Position numbers and translations under genes: made by a program. 64,000 nt of DNA, from assembly GCA_026413805.1 (NCBI GenBank), contig JAOAKE010000002.1:3599-67598 (forward strand). The letters are read 5' to 3'. Shown here piece by piece: positions 11,718 to 59,697 of this stretch. How positions within the stretch are numbered: the first letter of the stretch is position 1; the number at the start of each line of letters is the position of its first letter. The DNA comes from Candidatus Micrarchaeota archaeon (GTDB lineage: Archaea; Micrarchaeota; Micrarchaeia; Anstonellales; Anstonellaceae). The notes beneath the pieces are model-generated. The model had not been told where the DNA came from, ran no database searches, and saw only the letters and a list, made by a program, of their open reading frames with translations.

Positions 11718-12437
11718 TTACTCTTTCTCTTGCCCTTTTCCTTCTGATGGCTGTTTTCCAAGGACTGCATTGACAGCGTGCTTTACTTCAAGGACTGCCC
11801 ACTTAACCGCGGCATTTCCAAAGGCAGCCACGCTTGCAAGTGATGCCCCTACTGCCAAGGGAGCTGCGGGCGAGCCCGAAACAATGGTCGCTACTGCTGC
11901 TGTGCCAGTGGCAACCACCGCGGCCCCGGACAGGGGCAGCACCTTCTTTTTCATAGAGCCTATGGCATTCCTGCTTTCATCGTTTAGTTTCCCCACAACA
12001 GCGGCGATGGGCGCAGCTTCAAATTTTTCTCCCAAGACGTCCTTTGCCATCCAAACCGCGTCTGATGCTTTCAGCAAATTATCTGTTTTTTTAAGCGGGC
12101 CCGAACCCCCTGCCCTGTTAACGACAAAATCGGCGCTTTCAATGAGTGCCAGTCCAAACTCCTTGCGCACCCTTTCAAACCTCTCCATTTCGTGGCGCAT
12201 CATCTTGTTTTGCTCATGCCCTTGCGAGGCAGGGAGCCCACCCATCACCATAAGGGATACGTCCCTCTCTTTTTTGTATTTAGCCCATTTTATAGCCACG
12301 TCTTTTTCCATCTGTGCTGGAAGATTCAGGCTGGCTAAAAACCTCTTCATCTCCTTGTCCTTCATCATTGCTGGATTTGGCTTGGCATTTGCTAACCTCA
12401 TATTATCTAACCTCCCTGGTGCCTTTTTTCTTTTCAT
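11718..12437 (-). CDS. hypothetical protein with Ala/Gly-rich C-terminal segment, first gene of the minus-strand cluster
   Basis: 239-aa ORF 59 nt upstream of the MoxR gene. The C-terminus LSGAAVVATGTAAVATIVSGSPAAPLAVGASLASVAAFG is a possible membrane or fibrous segment. Confidence 0.45.
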   Translation of the reverse strand: MKRKKAPGRLDNMRLANAKPNPAMMKDKEMKRFLASLNLPAQMEKDVAIKWAKYKKERDVSLMVMGGLPASQGHEQNKMMRHEMERFERVRKEFGLALIESADFVVNRAGGSGPLKKTDNLLKASDAVWMAKDVLGEKFEAAPIAAVVGKLNDESRNAIGSMKKKVLPLSGAAVVATGTAAVATIVSGSPAAPLAVGASLASVAAFGNAAVKWAVLEVKHAVNAVLGKQPSEGKGQEKE

Positions 12438-22134: not shown

Positions 22135-22860
22135 CTAATTTGGTTCGCAACACCTACTGTCACATCCACAACTAATGTTACAGACTTGATAGCTACAGCA
22201 AACATGGGTGTCAGGGAGGTAAATTGTCTCATTGTTACAGCACGCATAAGGAGGATAATATGTTTTCTCCCCACAGTTCCCGCGGGGCAGGCACCATTCC
22301 CCAAAGCACGGCATTTCTTGAATGCATTCTCCCACCAGCTTCACCGTGCCTGTCTGGTTTTCTTCAGGTCCAAAATAAATAGGATAAGAAGAGGCGCGAT
22401 AACTAAAAGCCAAGTCAAGCTGGTATCTTGATCCTTCTAAAAACACCTCTCCTGACTTGCAGGGATGTTTCTGAAGAGAGCTTAGATTTATGGAAATTAT
22501 CTTTACTGTGTTTGGATAAAAGTACAGAGAGCGAGCGGGAGCACCCTTATCCCATGAGAATCGAGTAGCCTCATGGACTCTAAACATTGAAAAATTTTGC
22601 CCATTGACATAAACTTTGGTTAGCGTAATTGCCTGCGGCTCCTCGTTTTTAATCTCCAGCAAAAGGTAATTTGGGCTTACGAAATTTGATTTTACTGCAA
22701 TTGGCCTTGCAGAAGACCAGTATTTGTCCGACCTCTCCTTTTCAACAGAGCTTGCAAAGCCAGGCCAAATCATCGCAAGCACTATTGCAATTATAACAAT
22801 GAGGAGGGCAACAGCATAAATCATCATGCTTTCAGATGCTGCCTGGCCGCGCAAAGCCAT
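22135..22860 (-). CDS. type IV pilin-like (class III signal peptide) secreted Cys-rich protein
   Basis: The N-terminus MALRGQAASESMMIYAVALLIVIIAIVLAMIW has the [KR]G-Q/A prepilin-peptidase-like site with Glu at +5 and a hydrophobic helix. The C-terminal 60 aa contain about 14 Cys (YACCNNE...VCCSYQVCNISCGCDSRCCEPN). It is encoded antisense between rps7 and EF-2. Confidence 0.55.
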   Translation of the reverse strand: MALRGQAASESMMIYAVALLIVIIAIVLAMIWPGFASSVEKERSDKYWSSARPIAVKSNFVSPNYLLLEIKNEEPQAITLTKVYVNGQNFSMFRVHEATRFSWDKGAPARSLYFYPNTVKIISINLSSLQKHPCKSGEVFLEGSRYQLDLAFSYRASSYPIYFGPEENQTGTVKLVGECIQEMPCFGEWCLPRGNCGEKTYYPPYACCNNETIYLPDTHVCCSYQVCNISCGCDSRCCEPN

Positions 22861-45213: not shown

Positions 45214-45544
45214 TGTGACTCTCCCAAAAAATCGTTCAAATTCGGTGCGCAAGGTAAAAAGGCGCGCTCCATCAGGCGAAGTGCACACGCTTTACAGAAG
45301 GAGGCAGAAGGGAAAGAGGCATACCTGCCCAATAAGCGGAAAGCCGCTTCAGGCAGTGAGCTCCTTGGAAGGCAACCTTTCAAGGCGCAGGCCTAACCGA
45401 AAATTCGGCGGGCAGCTTTCATCTGGCGCAGCCTCACGCATAATAGTCCTTGCCACGCGCGTCAAGGAAGGAGTCATGAAACTTCAAGACATAGACATCA
45501 AGCTTCTTCCTTATGTCAAGCGCTACCTTGCAAGAAAGAAGTAA
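45206..45544 (+). CDS. rpl34e: ribosomal protein L34e
   Basis: L34e family (RRRQKGKRHTCPISGKPLQAV). GTG start. Confidence 0.75.
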   Translation: MHNVTLPKNRSNSVRKVKRRAPSGEVHTLYRRRQKGKRHTCPISGKPLQAVSSLEGNLSRRRPNRKFGGQLSSGAASRIIVLATRVKEGVMKLQDIDIKLLPYVKRYLARKK

Positions 45545-45560
45545 GCAAAAGGAGGAGCAG

Positions 45561-46151
45561 ATGATAATAACAATCTCTGGCTTGTCAGGAAGCGGCAAAA
45601 ATACAATCGGCAGCATAGTTGCAAAAAGGCTGAAGCTTAGGCATGTCAACCCCACATTCAAGAAGCTGGCAGAAGAGCGCCGCATGGACCTGCTGGAATT
45701 CCAAAAAAAGGCAGAGGCAGAGCCCAGGATTGACAAGGAATTTGACGCAGCTTTGATAAAAGAAGTTGAGAAAGGCCCATGCGTTGTGACGACCTGGCTT
45801 GGCCCATGGATGATACTAAATGCAGACCTGCGTGTCTGGATAGATGCCTCGCAACAGACACGGGCCCAGAGAATTGCAAAAAGAGACGGCATGACTTTGG
45901 AAAAGGCGCTTGAGCACATAAGCGCACGCGACTCCTCAAACCGCTCAAGGTACCTCTCAATATACAATATAGACATCTGCGACCATTCGGGCTTTGACTT
46001 GGTGATAAATTCAGAGAAGTTCAAGCCAGAGCAATCTGCCCAGGTAATCATTAATGCTGCCTTGTTAAAGGCTGGAAAGCCAAAAAAAGGAAGGCCCGCT
46101 TTGCAGAAAAAGGTCCAAAGGAAGGCGGGCAAGAAAGTGAAAGGAAAATAA
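45561..46151 (+). CDS. cmk: cytidylate kinase (archaeal)
   Basis: P-loop GLSGSGKNT. Conserved L34e-cmk-L14e order. Confidence 0.82.
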   Translation: MIITISGLSGSGKNTIGSIVAKRLKLRHVNPTFKKLAEERRMDLLEFQKKAEAEPRIDKEFDAALIKEVEKGPCVVTTWLGPWMILNADLRVWIDASQQTRAQRIAKRDGMTLEKALEHISARDSSNRSRYLSIYNIDICDHSGFDLVINSEKFKPEQSAQVIINAALLKAGKPKKGRPALQKKVQRKAGKKVKGK

Positions 46152-46178
46152 GCAGTTTTTTGCAACGGAGGAATTTTT

Positions 46179-46367
46179 ATGGCGGCTATATCTGTTGGGC
46201 GCGTGTGCGTAAAGTTAAAGGGGCGAGACGCAGGCGAAAAGGTAGTCATAACAAAGATAATAGACAAGAATTTCGTCATGGTTCGCTCGGCTGCGAGGAA
46301 GAAAAACCCTGAGAGGCGCTGTGCCATTGTCCATCTTGAGCCAACCGAAACAGTAGTTAGCGCCTGA
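46179..46367 (+). CDS. rpl14e: ribosomal protein L14e
   Basis: KOW-type L14e (ISVGRVCVKLKGRDAGEKVVI). Confidence 0.85.
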   Translation: MAAISVGRVCVKLKGRDAGEKVVITKIIDKNFVMVRSAARKKNPERRCAIVHLEPTETVVSA

Positions 46368-46401
46368 TTTTTCAAAGCGCCTGCCGGCAAGGGTATTATA
46401 G

Positions 46402-49353: not shown

Positions 49354-49929
49354 ATGGATATTGAGATATTGCGCGAAAAGGAGAACAGGCTGGAGTTTTT
49401 GCTTAAAGGAACCTCTGTTCCGTTCTCCAACTTGGTAAGAAGGTATGTTTTAGGGCAGCTTCCAACCTTTGCAATTGACCGAGTGACCTTTTATGAGAAT
49501 TCCTCCGCGCTCTTTGACGAATACATTGCCCACAGGCTTGGGCAAATCCCAATTGTTTCAGACGTTGCCCGCCCAACAGATGAAATCACCTTCATGCTTG
49601 ACGCAGAGGGGCCAGCCACAGTTTATTCCAAGCACCTCAAAAGCAGTGACCCGAAAATAAAAGTGGCTTATGAGAACATCCCTATCCTGCGCCTGCTTGA
49701 AGGGCAAAACATACGCCTTGAGGCAAAGGCTCGGCAGGGGATAGGGCGAGCCCATGCAAAGTTCCAACCAGGCTTAATCTCCTATGAGATGCTCTCTGAA
49801 AGCGAGTTTCGTTTCAAGCTTGAAAGCTTCATGCAAATTCCGCCTCGCAAGATGCTTATGCAAACAGCGGATATCATAATTGAAAAATGCGAGGAGCTTG
49901 AACGCAAGCTTTCGGAGTTAAAAGAATAA
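49354..49929 (+). CDS. rpoD: RNA polymerase subunit D (Rpb3 homolog), short form (191 aa) lacking the Cys-rich Fe-S domain
   Basis: Rpb3 dimerisation-domain sequence. Conserved S11-rpoD order. No cysteine cluster. Confidence 0.82.
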   Translation: MDIEILREKENRLEFLLKGTSVPFSNLVRRYVLGQLPTFAIDRVTFYENSSALFDEYIAHRLGQIPIVSDVARPTDEITFMLDAEGPATVYSKHLKSSDPKIKVAYENIPILRLLEGQNIRLEAKARQGIGRAHAKFQPGLISYEMLSESEFRFKLESFMQIPPRKMLMQTADIIIEKCEELERKLSELKE

Positions 49930-49996
49930 CTAGCTAAAAATTGCATGCGCAAAAGAAATAAAAAGGGGGCGATGTAGCAAGTTGAAATTAGAGGTT

Positions 49997-50120
49997 GTGG
50001 GGGTGGCAGAGCCAGGTCAAATGCGCCAGCTTGAGGGGCTGGTGCCTTAGGGCTTCGAGGGTTCAAAAAAAATCCGCCCTTGTCTGGTGCGGGTTTGGAG
50101 AACAAATCCCTTCCCCCACA
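49997..50120 (+). tRNA. tRNA-Leu(GAG) with a ~39-nt non-canonical intron in the T-loop (between positions 56/57)
   Basis: Acceptor GTGGGGG/CCCCCAC, then discriminator A. D-arm GCA-GAGCCAGGTCAAA-TGC. Anticodon arm CCAGC-TTGAGGG-GCTGG. Long variable arm. The T-stem GAGGG-TTC is interrupted by AAAAAAAATCCGCCCTTGTCTGGTGCGGGTTTGGAGAAC before AAAT-CCCTT. Confidence 0.75.
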
Positions 50121-51632: not shown

Positions 51633-51770
51633 GGGGCCATGGGGTAACCTGGCTATCCTTCCGGCTTGGGGTGCCGGCGATCCGAGTGAGGTTGAAGTGG
51701 CCTTCGGGAATTCAACTCTTTGCAAGGTGGCAAGAATCCACCTGCAAAAGGACAAATCTCGGTGGCCCCA
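51633..51770 (+). tRNA. tRNA-Pro(GGG)-like gene with a ~65-nt insertion in the T-arm and no canonical TTC half (intron-containing tRNA or pseudogene)
   Basis: Acceptor GGGGCCA/TGGCCCC plus A, then a T-rich tract. D-arm GGGT-AACCTGGCT-ATCC. Anticodon arm CCGGC-TTGGGGT-GCCGG (GGG, G37). T-stem CCGAG...CTCGG flanks TGAGGTTGAAGTGGCCTTCGGGAATTCAACTCTTTGCAAGGTGGCAAGAATCCACCTGCAAAAGGAC before AAAT. The region between rpoN and rps2 often carries tRNA-Pro in archaea. Confidence 0.4.
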
Positions 51771-51845
51771 TTTTATTTTAACGAAAGGGAAATTTCGAGA
51801 GTGGCGTCAACAAGTGCCTGCGAAATCCCGGACAGAGGTTGTATC

Positions 51846-52604
51846 ATGAGCGAGAGTTTCTTGATAAAGCAGGAGGCATACCTTGAAGCAGGGGTGCATA
51901 TCGGCACAAAGCTCAAAGTAATTGACATGAGCCAATTCATCTACCGAATGCGAAATGACGGCCTGTATATACTTGACCTGCGCAAGATAGATGAGCGGAT
52001 AAGGCTTGCAGGAAAGCTTCTTTCTCAATATGCCCCAAACGAAATCCTCGTTGTTGCCTCGCGCACCTACTCTGGCAATGCCGCTTCGGTTTTTTCCCAG
52101 CAGACAGGCATCAAGATTTTTCAGGGGAGGTTTATCCCAGGCATTTTCACAAACGTCTCACGCTCAGATTTCATGGAGCCCAAGCTGCTTCTAATCTGCG
52201 ACCCAAAAGGCGAGCGGCAGGCCGCCATTGAAGCAGGAAAAATGGGCATCCCCACAATAGGGCTTTGCGACACCGACAACTCAACTTCATTTATAGACTG
52301 GGTAGTGCCCTGCAACAACAAAGGGAGGCGCTCACTTGCCCTTATTTTCTACCTTCTAACCCGCGAGTATCTAATGGGAAGGGGCAGGATTTCTTCATAT
52401 GACGAGTTTAGCGTGCCTCTTTCTGCATTTGAGGCAGAGCCGCAGATGCAGGAAAGCCCTGCGCAGGAAAAAGAGGGAGCTGCCGAAGAAGGCGCCCCTG
52501 CGCAGCAGCCAAGCGTTCCTCAACAGGAAGACCTACCAGATAAAGCAGCAGAACAGGAGGCTGGCACTAAAAAGGAGAAAAAGGGCCGAAAAAAAGAAGA
52601 ATAG
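51846..52604 (+). CDS. rps2: ribosomal protein S2 with acidic/Lys-rich C-terminal extension
   Basis: S2 family (LEAGVHIGTKLKV...). Start at MSESFLIK (the listed ORF extends upstream over the RNA element). Confidence 0.88.
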   Translation: MSESFLIKQEAYLEAGVHIGTKLKVIDMSQFIYRMRNDGLYILDLRKIDERIRLAGKLLSQYAPNEILVVASRTYSGNAASVFSQQTGIKIFQGRFIPGIFTNVSRSDFMEPKLLLICDPKGERQAAIEAGKMGIPTIGLCDTDNSTSFIDWVVPCNNKGRRSLALIFYLLTREYLMGRGRISSYDEFSVPLSAFEAEPQMQESPAQEKEGAAEEGAPAQQPSVPQQEDLPDKAAEQEAGTKKEKKGRKKEE

Positions 52605-52605
52605 T

Positions 52606-53811
52606 CTAATCAGGGAACGCCGCATAGCAGTTCCTTGCGTCATCACTGGCTTGGCTTATAAATTTGCAAATCTCCTTGTCATAAGCCACTATGGCTGCCC
52701 GGTAATAGCACTTGTCTTTCCAAGCAGTGTCCGACACCTTTCCGCAGTCGTCTGCAACAGGCCCTTCTTCTACATGCAGGATGCTGTTTGCATAGCACTC
52801 CGTCCTTTGCGAGCCTGTCTCAAGCCCGTTGCAAAGAGAAGGCATCCTGTTAGCCATTGCAGCAGCGTAGTAGCATCCTGCCTTGAGAAGGCTGATTTTT
52901 ATCTTGGTGCAAACTGAAACATCTGCTGTCTCTTTTGCAAACTCTGAGTAACACCAGTTCCTGTCTGTGCCGCTTCCCACAGCCATCTCGGGTTCTACCT
53001 TTTCGCAGAACCTTTCATCCTTTCTTTCAGCTGCAAAATGCAAGTAACACCTGTTTCGGTAGTCGCTGCCAGCAGTGGCAAGGTCGCAGCCTGATGGGTC
53101 GCCCAGCCTCTTTGAGGCAAGCTCCAAGCAATAGTCTTGCACAGCCGCAAAGCTTGCAAGCTTGCACTCCAAAAAGTCCCTTTTCACCACTGCCCTGCAC
53201 GCATGCCTTTCAGCAGGCGTGCTTATTTTCTCACAGGCACTTGTGTCGCTTTTGTTTTTTGCATATTCATAATAGCACCAGTCGCTTGAGCAATACGAGT
53301 AATCCTCCTTTTCCAATGCGATGCACAAGCCCCTTTTTTCCAAGTCAAGCAAAAGCATGCACTCTGGCAGCACGTTCTTGAGGCAGACCAGCCTTTTGTC
53401 ATAGTCTGCAATGAGGTTGCATATCTCTTCTGACTTTTCCCTTCTTGCATTTTCAGTCAGGCATTCTACCCTTAATTCAGGGTTGCTTATCTTCCTGCAC
53501 ACCTCCAGGCTTTTGTTTGCAAAAAGCGAATAGCACCAGTCAATCTTCTCCACCGAATAGATATTTTTGCACAGTTCAACGTCCCCCCTTTCGCGCGCAA
53601 GGTTGTAGAAGCACTCATCGCGCTGGAGAACGTTGCCTTCTTTGCACGGGGAAAGAGCAGTCTCGTTCTTTTCAGAGCCATTCCTGCTAGCATTTTCTGC
53701 AACCTCTTCCCCCACAATAGGAGCCGGTTTTTTTTCCGTGCAGCCTGCAATAAGGATTAACAGGAAAACTGCTGCTGCCATTGCAAAGGCTAGCCATCGT
53801 GCCGTGCCCAT
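52606..53811 (-). CDS. secreted Cys-rich repeat lipoprotein (putative), ~400 aa
   Basis: Signal plus lipobox-like MGTARWLAFAMAAAVFLLILIAGC. At least 6 copies of a ~35-aa module [DN]xCY..[FY]A....D..C.KI are present. The longer start at 54036 would overlap a tRNA on the other strand. Confidence 0.5.
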   Translation of the reverse strand: MGTARWLAFAMAAAVFLLILIAGCTEKKPAPIVGEEVAENASRNGSEKNETALSPCKEGNVLQRDECFYNLARERGDVELCKNIYSVEKIDWCYSLFANKSLEVCRKISNPELRVECLTENARREKSEEICNLIADYDKRLVCLKNVLPECMLLLDLEKRGLCIALEKEDYSYCSSDWCYYEYAKNKSDTSACEKISTPAERHACRAVVKRDFLECKLASFAAVQDYCLELASKRLGDPSGCDLATAGSDYRNRCYLHFAAERKDERFCEKVEPEMAVGSGTDRNWCYSEFAKETADVSVCTKIKISLLKAGCYYAAAMANRMPSLCNGLETGSQRTECYANSILHVEEGPVADDCGKVSDTAWKDKCYYRAAIVAYDKEICKFISQASDDARNCYAAFPD

Positions 53812-53874
53812 TTTATGCACCACTGCCCTTTCGAATGCAGCATTTTTAATGATATTCGCCAAAACTATCCTTTT

Positions 53875-53995
53875 GCGGAGATGGCAGAGCCTGGTCAAAT
53901 GCGCGAGGCTTAGGACCTCGTGCCTTAGCGGCTGCGGGGGTTCTGGCTTTTTTGGCATAGCCCAAAATTGCCGCCTATAAATCCTCCTCTCCGCA
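53875..53995 (+). tRNA. tRNA-Leu(UAG) with a 35-nt intron in the T-loop (56/57)
   Basis: Acceptor GCGGAGA/TCTCCGC plus A, then a T-tract. D-arm GCA-GAGCCTGGTCAAA-TGC. Anticodon arm CGAGG-CTTAGGA-CCTCG. Long variable arm. GGGGG-TTC, then TGGCTTTTTTGGCATAGCCCAAAATTGCCGCCTAT, then AAAT-CCTCC. Confidence 0.72.
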
Positions 53996-54019
53996 CCTTT
54001 TTTATTAACAAGCTTCGAT

Positions 54020-55090
54020 ATGATGGGCATGCTCATTTTTCAATCATATGCACAAAAGCAAGAAAGCTCCCACGAGGAAGACGAACGCCGCTTCGGAATA
54101 AGGATGCGAAAGCCATTTTATGAAATATCAAGTGTGTTTAGCGAAGAAATCCAGACTGCTCTGCCCGAGATAGAAAAAATATTCCAAAAGAAGGGCCTGT
54201 CCGAGTTTATTTCTACCCTGACGCCTGGCACCCAAAATGCAATATACGCGGCATCATTTGCGTGGGGCTATGAAAATGCGGTGCGCTATGTCAAAAGCGC
54301 CATGAAGCTTGAGGAGGTGAAGAACGCCGCTGATTCTGAGGAGCGAAGCAAGGCAGTGATGGAAAGCATCTGCTCGCAGGCGCAAAGCGAAAAGCCCGCG
54401 GAATACAAGGAAAGCGCCAGCTTTGTTTGGGGCTTCTACAACGAAGACTTGAAAGAAACGCAGGCCCAAAAGGCAAAGACCGAGCGCATTCTAAAAAGCA
54501 GTGAAAAGACGAAGGAAGAAATTGAGCTGCCCTCTAGCTCTCAAGCAGCCGTTTCTCTTTCCATAGAGCACGACTCCACCACCCCCTCCCTCCTATATTG
54601 CGCTTCATCGCTGCAAGCAGAGGAAGAACAAAAGGAGCAGCAGGCAATCGCACAAAAGAGAGAGGAGCTTGCGCGCTTGATTGAAGCCCCGCAGGCCAAA
54701 CTCATCATCCAAGAAGCAAAAAAAGAAGGAAGCGCTGAAAAAGAAGAGGAGATGGAAAAGGCAAGGCAGATAGCCCTCCAAAGAAAAGAAGAGCTAATTG
54801 AAGAGTACCAGCGGACAGAAAAGAAAATAGCAGAGGCCATAAAAGTCCTTGACAAGCTTGAAAGCGACAAAAAAGAAGAGCTGCAGCGAATTGCGTCCAT
54901 GCTCCCCAGGGAGCTGGAAGCAGTTGTGCTGCGCCGCGGCCATCTTCTTGCAAGCCGCAAAGCCCTAAAAGCGCAGCTTGTAAAGTGGCTGGCGTTTTCC
55001 TCTGCAACTCGCTATGCCCTCAAAAACATGCCTCCAGAAAGGCTATTTAAGCTCATCTCCCTTTCCTCTCTTTTCAGGTTTGGAAGGTAG
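54020..55090 (+). CDS. hypothetical coiled-coil protein (356 aa)
   Basis: Long ORF, E/K/A-rich, no motif recognised. Confidence 0.45.
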   Translation: MMGMLIFQSYAQKQESSHEEDERRFGIRMRKPFYEISSVFSEEIQTALPEIEKIFQKKGLSEFISTLTPGTQNAIYAASFAWGYENAVRYVKSAMKLEEVKNAADSEERSKAVMESICSQAQSEKPAEYKESASFVWGFYNEDLKETQAQKAKTERILKSSEKTKEEIELPSSSQAAVSLSIEHDSTTPSLLYCASSLQAEEEQKEQQAIAQKREELARLIEAPQAKLIIQEAKKEGSAEKEEEMEKARQIALQRKEELIEEYQRTEKKIAEAIKVLDKLESDKKEELQRIASMLPRELEAVVLRRGHLLASRKALKAQLVKWLAFSSATRYALKNMPPERLFKLISLSSLFRFGR

Positions 55091-56841: not shown

Positions 56842-57714
56842 TCAGAACCCCAAAAGGTAAATTTCACTCCCGTCAGGGAGGAGGATGCTTGAAGGCCATT
56901 TGAACAGCTCTTCTTTTTTTCCATCACTCTTCTTTGCATTCTCAGCAGTGCATTTTTCTTTTTGCATGGCGAATATCTCCATTTTAGAATTCCTAATCGC
57001 AGAGTTAATGTCCCTGATTAAGCCTTCGCAAAAGCTAGCCAGCCTTTCAAGATTTGCCTCTGACAGGCGAGCCATCCTGTCTATGAATAAATAGCCTGTC
57101 TTCTTTTTGCCAGTTGCCACTTCTATATTCCACCTGCTCCAGCGGTAAGTGGAGTATAGCGAATGTGCCAAGAATGCCGATGCCGCCCCAAGCCCTATTG
57201 CAGTGATTGGGGAGGGAAAAGCTGCAAAAAATGCTCCTGCTATCGCCATTGTCCAGAAAGCCGCAGAATCTTTTAGCAAGTATTCTCCTTCTTTTGAAGG
57301 TGGCAGCTCAAGAAAAGTGCCAAAAGCAATCTTGGCATATCTTTCGGCATTTCTTGCAAGCAGCCTTTTTTCGGCATTGCCTCTGATCTCTTCTATCTTT
57401 TGCTCAACGCGACCATTTTTTATAGACATTGCAATCTCTTGCACCAGCCTGAGGGTTTTGGCAGAATACTCCAAGTATCTTATTTTCTCTTCTATTTCCT
57501 CTTTTGTCTTTTCCTTTTCCAAAAGAGGCATTCTACGGCGTATAGCTACATTGTTTTCATCCACTACCCATTCCTTTGTTGCCAGGTTTCTTACTGTCCT
57601 GAGGCATCCCAAAAAAGAGTAGCTCTCAACCCTTCTGAAAAATTTCTCGCGCCTGCCTTCTTTTCCTGCGACAGGGCTTGCGCTGGACTTTGAATCCCTA
57701 AGAAGGAGCTCCAT
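56842..57714 (-). CDS. hypothetical membrane protein (290 aa)
   Basis: ORF with a central hydrophobic segment (FWTMAIAGAFFAAFPSPITAIGLGAASAFLAHSLY). Confidence 0.4.
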   Translation of the reverse strand: MELLLRDSKSSASPVAGKEGRREKFFRRVESYSFLGCLRTVRNLATKEWVVDENNVAIRRRMPLLEKEKTKEEIEEKIRYLEYSAKTLRLVQEIAMSIKNGRVEQKIEEIRGNAEKRLLARNAERYAKIAFGTFLELPPSKEGEYLLKDSAAFWTMAIAGAFFAAFPSPITAIGLGAASAFLAHSLYSTYRWSRWNIEVATGKKKTGYLFIDRMARLSEANLERLASFCEGLIRDINSAIRNSKMEIFAMQKEKCTAENAKKSDGKKEELFKWPSSILLPDGSEIYLLGF

Positions 57715-59472: not shown

Positions 59473-59697
59473 AGCCCCCGGCGAGGATCGAACTCGCTAC
59501 CTGTTGTTTTCTTGTTGTTACTTCTCAGGCTTCCCTTGGGAAGTAACGTAGAAACCCGCCCGCAGTTTCGCAAGGGGGTTTCTCGCCCAGTTCCGCTCTG
59601 TTTGGTGTTCGGGAGGAAGTAACGTAGAAACCCGCCCGCAGTTTCGCAAGGGGGTTTCTCGTACAAGACAACCGCTCTACCAATGAGCTACGGGGGC
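59473..59697 (-). tRNA. tRNA-Thr(UGU) with a 153-nt canonical-position (37/38) intron containing a tandem 46-nt direct repeat
   Basis: Minus-strand exon 1 (59697-59662): GCCCCCG-TA-GCTC-ATTGGTA-GAGC-G-GTTGT-CTTGTA. Exon 2 (59508-59473): A-ACAAC-AGGTA-GCGAG-TTCGATC-CTCGC-CGGGGGC-T. The acceptor, D, anticodon and T stems all pair perfectly. The intron is 59509-59661. Confidence 0.8.
59540..59661. repeat. two copies of a 46-nt direct repeat (GAAGTAACGTAGAAACCCGCCCGCAGTTTCGCAAGGGGGTTTCTCG) at 59540-59585 and 59616-59661, inside the tRNA-Thr intron
   Basis: The copies are exactly identical and start 76 nt apart (30-nt spacer). Each contains an internal inverted repeat GAAACCC...GGGTTTC. Confidence 0.85.

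Follow-up and report, generated by a model that had tools for sequence, protein, structure and literature searches.

Positions 49997–50120 (+ strand) of the window, by which we mean the whole 64-kb (64,000-nt) stretch of DNA analysed here, hold a genuine tRNA-Leu(GAG) gene with a 39-nt intron in its T-loop. The gene lies in the order Cbf5-S13-S4-S11-RpoD-[tRNA]-L18e-L13-S9-...-S2, and its slot between rpoD and L18e belongs to the conserved archaeal ribosomal-protein/RNA-polymerase cluster. The upstream neighbour, RpoD (49354–49929, + strand), is short (191 aa) and matches the Rpb3 insert and dimerisation domains only. Six other ORFs of the window, spanning 239–476 aa (52606–54036, −; 54020–55090, +; 45434–46390, −; 56842–57714, −; 11718–12437, −; 22135–22860, −), returned no Pfam family at E ≤ 0.001. 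The parts of the tRNA gene are given below in the 58/59 register, which was chosen by the central-helix test described further on.

49956..49964, + strand: A/T-rich AAATAAAAA, possible archaeal TATA box, by inspection
49997..50066, + strand: tRNA-Leu(GAG) 5′ exon, tRNA positions 1–58
50061..50064, + strand: central helix strand H, G53 T54 T55 C56, followed by A57 A58 and the predicted 5′ cut
50067..50105, + strand: T-loop intron, 39 nt, register from the central-helix test
50100..50103, + strand: central helix strand H′, intron GAAC, followed by AA (50104–50105) and the predicted 3′ cut before A59
50106..50120, + strand: tRNA-Leu 3′ exon, tRNA positions 59–73, including A59 and T60

Read directly from the sequence, the gene comprises a GTGGGGG/CCCCCAC acceptor stem, a 3-bp D-arm (GCA...TGC), a CCAGC/GCTGG anticodon stem closing the loop TTGAGGG (anticodon GAG, 50033–50035), a long variable arm and the T-stem strands GAGGG (50057–50061) and CCCTT (50108–50112). 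The discriminator A73 is position 50120, and CCA is not encoded in the gene. The T-loop, TTC...AAAT, is interrupted by 39 nt, within which an h′-like hairpin with a 6-nt loop spans 50070–50096 (AAATCCGC(CC)/(GG)TGCGGGTTT, i.e. AAATCCGCCC/GGTGCGGGTTT). Some 35 nt before the position at which the mature tRNA starts, AAATAAAAA is a possible candidate for an archaeal TATA element.

Standard searches overlook this gene. ARAGORN returned 0 tRNAs for the whole window, and Rfam, run on the whole window at the gathering threshold with default filters, gave no tRNA match; at the Leu locus itself, ARAGORN reported no tRNA even with anticodon-loop introns allowed, because these are the only introns that it models. 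The Rfam result is attributable to the filters, as the same tRNA model (RF00005) scored above threshold once these were relaxed: it matched 49997–50120 over its full length (model positions 1–71) with 37.6 bits (gathering threshold 29; E = 1.4e-6 locally and 2.5e-4 over the whole window), placing a 40-nt insertion in the T-loop. When the 39-nt block was removed in silico, ARAGORN recognised the 85-nt product as tRNA-Leu(gag) with a normal cloverleaf (its drawing comprises 86 bases, i.e. the spliced product and one following base). This product has the 7-nt anticodon loop with GAG, long variable arm, A73 and 7-nt T-loop of a class II tRNA-Leu, and the stability of the precursor fold beats that of dinucleotide shuffles (z = −3.0). 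These data bear out the sequence-only reading in its tRNA-Leu(GAG) identity, in its placing of approximately 39 nt inside the T-loop TTC|AAAT, and in the hairpin that it had ascribed to the insert (CCGC...GCGG), which is contained in the 50070–50096 hairpin and present in the minimum free energy (MFE) structure.

Taking all of the evidence together, we consider it highly probable (roughly 0.88) that 49997–50120 represents a functional tRNA-Leu(GAG) gene, single-copy at this locus, whose T-loop intron is spliced by proteins. The closest relatives of the window RpoD, drawn from GTDB contigs with one genome per species, are from Candidatus Anstonellaceae/Micrarchaeota MAGs and are at most 66 % identical to it, suggesting that the window organism is a Micrarchaeota-like DPANN archaeon. 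ARAGORN detected tRNA-Leu(GAG) just downstream of rpoD at 16 of 24 related loci, and a further three rpoD-adjacent tRNA-Leu loci (L002, L013 and L022) were recovered using Rfam or manual inspection. A metagenome scan for Leu(GAG) exons split by a T-loop insert contributed three more loci (L025, L026 and L027). The arrangement rpoD-[tRNA-Leu GAG]-L18e, our mark of orthology, is shared by the window with the majority of loci L001–L027.

In the Micrarchaeota/Anstonellaceae MAGs, the tRNA at the rpoD site is mostly uninterrupted, with a T-loop insert in five. The insert is absent from syntenic orthologues L003–L005, L007, L010, L011 and L018, and the intronless genes of L003, L004 and L005 are 96.5 % identical to the spliced window product. 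Among the five insert-bearing lineages (the window, L002, L025, L026 and L027), the exons are 98.8–100 % identical, RpoD and L18e are 66–80 % identical and the introns are 40–68 % identical; the exons of L002 are identical to those of the window, with a 41-nt insert in the same place. The insert is thus polymorphic for presence and absence, with conserved exons and a fast-evolving intron, and the conservation of the one together with the divergence of the other points to purifying selection acting on the exons, with constraint relaxed on an insert that can be removed. The window shares a homologous Leu intron with L002, L026 and L027, the window intron displaying 63–68 % identity to the other three, above shuffles. 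No homology to the window intron was detectable for that of L025 (38.9 % identity against a shuffle mean of 41.6 %), which is at a different position.

The same comparison bears on the idea that the gene is a decaying pseudogene, inactivated by the 39-nt insertion, with CUC/CUU decoding performed by another tRNA. Rejection of the locus by standard tRNA finders would fit such a gene, and a second copy could lie outside the 64-kb window; however, the exons are far better conserved over five lineages than the flanking proteins while the insert diverges, the pairing of the insert tail with GTTC is maintained, and the location between rpoD and L18e is the conserved one in which intact orthologues reside. 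Moreover, three further tRNA genes in the window are similarly interrupted, and decoding would be lost if all were pseudogenes. We regard this explanation as very improbable.

Several related loci carry introns of other kinds. At 615–698 (− strand) of L025, a syntenic tRNA-Leu(GAG) has a 56/57 intron with an apparently clean 10-bp h′ and HBh′ motif, assigned by inspection rather than by folding. The syntenic Leu gene of the Iainarchaeum-labelled L022 (3131–3249) has a 59/60 intron with a near-canonical hBHBh′, also by inspection, and that of L013 (3073–3172), a tRNA-Leu(GAG), has an anticodon-loop insertion. L020 (804–901) encodes a different gene, tRNA-Ser(GGA), with a 16-nt T-loop intron at 59/60. 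The varied introns of L025, L022, L013 and L020 give the impression that one gene acquired introns independently on several occasions, or that introns slid within it.

We then come to the exact position of the window intron. Deleting 39 nt from any start between 50064 and 50068 yields the identical 85-nt sequence, giving five equivalent registers from 55/56 to 59/60. On each strand, cleavage reportedly falls two bulge bases beyond the 3′ end of the central helix, as described by Xue and colleagues in 2006. Our helix test, a 4-bp central helix with the cut two bases 3′ on each strand, was applied to every sequence-equivalent register. For the window Leu gene, it returned 0/4 pairs at 55/56, 1/4 at 56/57, 2/4 at 57/58, 4/4 at 58/59 and 1/4 at 59/60; we rejected all registers other than 58/59 (0–2 of 4 pairs), as 58/59 alone combines a 4-bp helix and a cut two bases 3′ of each of its strands with restoration of the mature sequence.

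A single 4/4 register was likewise identified in all nine T-loop introns (9/9: window Leu, Ser and Pro intron 2; L002, L026, L027, L025, L022 and L020), and also in three tRNA-Pro 53/54 introns and the tRNA-Thr 37/38 intron. This register is 58/59 for window Leu, L002, L026, L027, window Ser and window Pro intron 2, with the tails GAACAA, GGACAA, GAACAA, GAATAA, GAACAA and GGACAA, respectively; the pattern G[A/G]A[C/T]AA is therefore kept in six 58/59 introns from three different tRNAs. For L025, it is 56/57 (GGGT/GCCT), and for L022 (helix TTCA/TGAA) and L020, it is 59/60. The chance of one fixed random 4-mer tail pairing with GTTC is 1/32, and chance pairing is negligible because three independent tRNAs and the other intron positions agree.

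An intron that is real yet cut elsewhere, either at 59/60 as an hBH (bulge-helix-loop) motif with the T-stem intact or at 56/57, has several points in its favour. Every register from 55/56 to 59/60 yields the same mature tRNA from the window sequence, the published T-loop positions of Micrarchaeota are 53/54 and 59/60 (PMC3239211), 4/4 helices are found at 59/60 in the introns of L022 and L020 and at 56/57 in that of L025, and G53-C61 stays paired in the MFE and RNAalifold structures. However, the window sequence forms just one of four pairs at either position, as opposed to four of four at 58/59. The base following TTCAA in otherwise identical Leu genes is A, T, G and A (T in L002 and G in L026), and it is T in window Ser and C in window Pro, whereas every intronless orthologue has A59. 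The 58/59 register gives A59 in all, and 59/60 is disfavoured because position 59 would vary among otherwise identical tRNAs. Only the helix test speaks against 56/57, which in these precursors cannot be told from 58/59 by sequence. Overall, a cut at either position seems unlikely. The cut sites of the putative splicing reaction are predicted from 58/59, the best register.

Folding of the Leu T-arm with its intron gave an unconstrained MFE structure in which the T-stem is fully kept and GAAC is unpaired, helix-containing folds lying 0.3–0.9 kcal/mol above it. For Ser, the helix-containing fold is the MFE, and for the others, it is 0.3–4.3 kcal/mol above. The MFE and every near-optimal fold contain the 50070–50096 hairpin, equivalents of which occur in the L002, L026 and L027 introns. 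RNAalifold, applied to the four homologous precursors, predicted TTC/GRA pairing, favouring a 3-bp helix that leaves the T-stem intact; completion of the 4-bp helix requires G53 to leave C61. No pair changed on both sides in this alignment, which comprises four sequences only and in which the L002 hairpin is misaligned, so RNAalifold revealed no true compensatory covariation. The helix changes are one-sided (G-C to G-U and A-U to G-U) because T54-T55-C56 is invariant.

When the helix is enforced, the 5′ cut is positioned in a 5×3 internal loop preceding an 8–10-bp intron hairpin. On the 3′ side, next to what is left of the T-stem (4 bp), five nucleotides bulge out: AAAUC, or CAAAU when G53 stays paired with C61. 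The Leu precursor does not form the strict hBHBh′ motif, with two 3-nt bulges directly flanked by h and h′. As its bulges are not the strict 3 nt, the modelled structures class it as a relaxed, non-strict bulge-helix-bulge (BHB) substrate. The sequence-only reading had anticipated both a boundary ambiguous by a few A residues and the need for a relaxed BHB, and each is upheld, the latter by folding and the helix test, in which the strict 3-4-3 motif is absent and a relaxed one can be drawn. Its 56/57 position was correct in respect of the T-loop but is not the best register. It had also stated that the lack of any BHB or hBH motif, together with rejection by tRNA finders, would speak against it; a relaxed BHB was drawn, and RF00005 scored the locus above its cut-off.

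All four tRNA genes in the window bear introns (4/4), three of them (Leu, Pro and Ser) in the T-loop, and all four were missed by default ARAGORN and gathering-threshold Rfam. T-loop introns had been described as rare at the outset; this holds across archaea but not in this lineage, given three of the four window tRNA genes and ARMAN-2 (PMC3239211). In its loose version, a stem-based tRNA scanner produced mostly false positives, and a stricter version returned only the four real tRNAs. The three genes in addition to tRNA-Leu are as follows.

51633–51770, + strand: tRNA-Pro(GGG), T-loop introns 51687–51710 (24 nt, 53/54) and 51716–51755 (40 nt, 58/59, tail GGACAA)
59473–59697, − strand: tRNA-Thr(UGU), 153-nt intron at 37/38 with a perfect CTTG/CAAG central helix
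62325–62503, − strand: tRNA-Ser(UGA), discriminator G, introns 62465–62448 (18 nt, 37/38) and 62416–62340 (77 nt, 58/59, tail GAACAA)

tRNA-Pro(GGG), missed by ARAGORN and by every Rfam run on the window, was found using BLASTn with intronless orthologues; its spliced product was accepted by ARAGORN, and both introns display 4/4 central helices. The tRNA-Pro genes of L002 and L008 have the 53/54 intron only. The longest S2 ORF (51720–52604, + strand, TTG start, 294 aa) overlaps tRNA-Pro, and its Pfam S2 match starts far inside; translation probably begins at an ATG further downstream, and an automatic gene call with the misplaced start would therefore mask tRNA-Pro.

tRNA-Ser(UGA) scored 30.0 bits with RF00005 (gathering threshold 29) under lax filters only, and its spliced product was also accepted by ARAGORN. 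Its 58/59 intron has 4/4 helix pairs and its 37/38 intron has 3/4; inspection of the 77-nt intron by eye for a C/D-box sRNA revealed no C box. The tRNA-Thr intron contains two perfect 46-nt copies (59615–59660 and 59539–59584), 76 nt apart, each of which folds as a hairpin. ARAGORN set to allow long introns (-i0,300) detects this gene, mislabelled as Ser(tga). Neither tRNA-Thr nor tRNA-Pro was found in any Rfam run, with Thr represented by a 14.8-bit fragment at most, and two of the window tRNA genes were above the RF00005 gathering threshold yet dropped by the default filter pipeline. A comparison of the Leu, Ser and Pro introns gave no evidence of transposition, as beyond the 6-nt tail, they are 30–47 % identical, i.e. 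at shuffle level.

Returning to tRNA-Leu, the features above suggest the following route from gene to mature tRNA. The 124-nt core precursor would be transcribed, and within the last six intron bases, GAAC-AA, GAAC would pair with the universally conserved G53-T54-T55-C56, forming the 4-bp central helix. Both helix strands would then be followed by A-A and a cut, giving a pseudo-symmetric BHB core. The tRNA splicing endonuclease is predicted to cut after A58 (50066|50067) and before A59 (50105|50106), and an RtcB-type ligase would presumably join 50066 to 50106 (...GGGTTCAA|ATCCCTT...), restoring the T-loop TTCAAAT. CCA, of which none is encoded, would be added after splicing, and the T-loop would then fold and become modified. 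Because the helix ties up T54, Ψ55 and C56, T-loop/D-loop tertiary contacts and T-loop modifications would take place only after splicing. Recognition by the archaeal splicing endonuclease involves a 4-bp helix with flanking bulges (Marck & Grosjean 2003; Xue et al. 2006; summarised in PMC4090602). As the flanks of the central helix are relaxed here, a broad-specificity endonuclease would be needed, probably either ε2 (as in ARMAN-1/-2 and Mancarchaeum) or a loop-bearing α4/(αβ)2 enzyme. No splicing endonuclease (tRNA_int_endo) or RtcB gene was present among the 30 window ORFs scanned.

It could instead be supposed that the 39 nt are retained in the mature tRNA as an expanded T-loop or extra arm, or that they are the integration scar of a mobile element. 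The insert does form a stable hairpin of its own, as a retained arm might. However, the T-loop is needed for tRNA elbow formation and for ribosome and EF binding, and the insert varies in both length and sequence (33–43 nt in Leu genes and 77 nt in the Ser T-loop) while its ends keep the splice-motif geometry. No repeats or mobile-element genes were seen flanking the Leu insert, and neither group I/II introns nor IS elements are as short as 39 nt. Both versions are scarcely credible in comparison with a protein-spliced intron.

The Leu(GAG) intron represents no novel type of system, since T-loop introns and the ε2 endonuclease have already been published for ARMAN-2, and a case such as this is expected in the lineage. 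One detail alone may be new, namely the recurrence of the 58/59 register, with its helix on G53-C56 and 5-nt 3′ bulge. It does not feature among the example positions ('53/54, 56/57, 59/60, etc.') listed in the review consulted (PMC4090602). A bolder proposal, which we consider doubtful, is that 58/59 introns constitute a distinct, undescribed relaxed-BHB sub-type of one Micrarchaeota clade, in which the tail GRAYAA would guide the intron onto G53-T54-Ψ55-C56 and open G53-C61. Such a sub-type, near-palindromic in its core (GUUCAA/GAACAA) and with 5 nt in its 3′ bulge, would make any tRNA a potential landing site, since all carry GTΨC, and would explain the 58/59 introns, unseen by tRNA finders, in three of the four window tRNA genes (Leu, Pro and Ser).

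The main value of the locus lies in the annotation of tRNA genes in such DPANN MAGs: all four window tRNA genes are invisible to default ARAGORN and standard Rfam, and the tRNA complements of these MAGs will therefore look falsely incomplete. In addition, the one syntenic tRNA-Leu(GAG) offers a comparative series of intronless, 56/57, 58/59, 59/60 and anticodon-loop variants, useful for studying the gain, loss and sliding of tRNA introns and the tolerance limits of an ε2-like endonuclease.

Among known systems, the window gene is most reminiscent of those of ARMAN-2 (Ca. Micrarchaeum acidiphilum), in which 56 % of tRNA genes are disrupted and pre-tRNA-Cys(GCA) has a 13-nt T-loop intron at 59/60 (PMC3239211). 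In vitro, the ε2 EndA of ARMAN-2 cuts strict BHB substrates as well as the relaxed 59/60 pre-tRNA-Cys, and the ε2 EndA of ARMAN-1/-2 and Mancarchaeum (Micrarchaeota) has a lineage-specific loop (Fujishima 2011, PMC3239211; Kaneta 2018, PMC5829648; PMC12397907). The window gene resembles ARMAN-2 pre-tRNA-Cys in its Micrarchaeota host, T-loop intron, relaxed BHB and need for a broad-specificity endonuclease; however, it is a Leu(GAG) gene, its intron is 39 nt and is positioned one base upstream (58/59), and its helix is on G53-C56 rather than 54–57, with G53-C61 opened and a 3′ bulge of 5 nt. The ARMAN-2-type 59/60 hBH (BHL; 54–57 helix, intact T-stem) is not formed in the window but is found in L022 and L020. 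ARMAN-2 tRNA-Pro(GGG) has two T-loop introns, at 53/54 and 59/60 (PMC3239211), and the window tRNA-Pro(GGG) has the same two-intron layout, differing in that its second intron is at 58/59 by the helix test and shares its GGACAA tail class with the Leu introns.

T-arm introns at 53/54, 56/57 and 59/60 are also known in Crenarchaeota and Nanoarchaeota, as described by Marck & Grosjean (2003) and Sugahara (2008) and reviewed in PMC4090602. Like the introns of Thermoproteales/Crenarchaeota and Nanoarchaeota described there, those of the window lie in the T-arm, would be spliced by proteins through relaxed hBH/HBh′ motifs, co-occur with other introns in a gene and are rapidly gained and lost between relatives. 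In contrast, that account assigns the crenarchaeal and nanoarchaeal systems (αβ)2 endonucleases with the crenarchaeal loop and similar introns shared between tRNAs by transposition (PMC4090602), whereas the window Leu, Ser and Pro introns show no detectable similarity outside the 6-nt tail. Finally, the window Leu intron has in common with the canonical 37/38 strict hBHBh′ (3-4-3) intron, of which the window tRNA-Thr is an example, the 4-bp helix and the cut after the second base 3′ on each strand; it differs in lying in the T-loop, in having bulges other than 3 nt and in forming its helix on the invariant GTΨC rather than on the anticodon.
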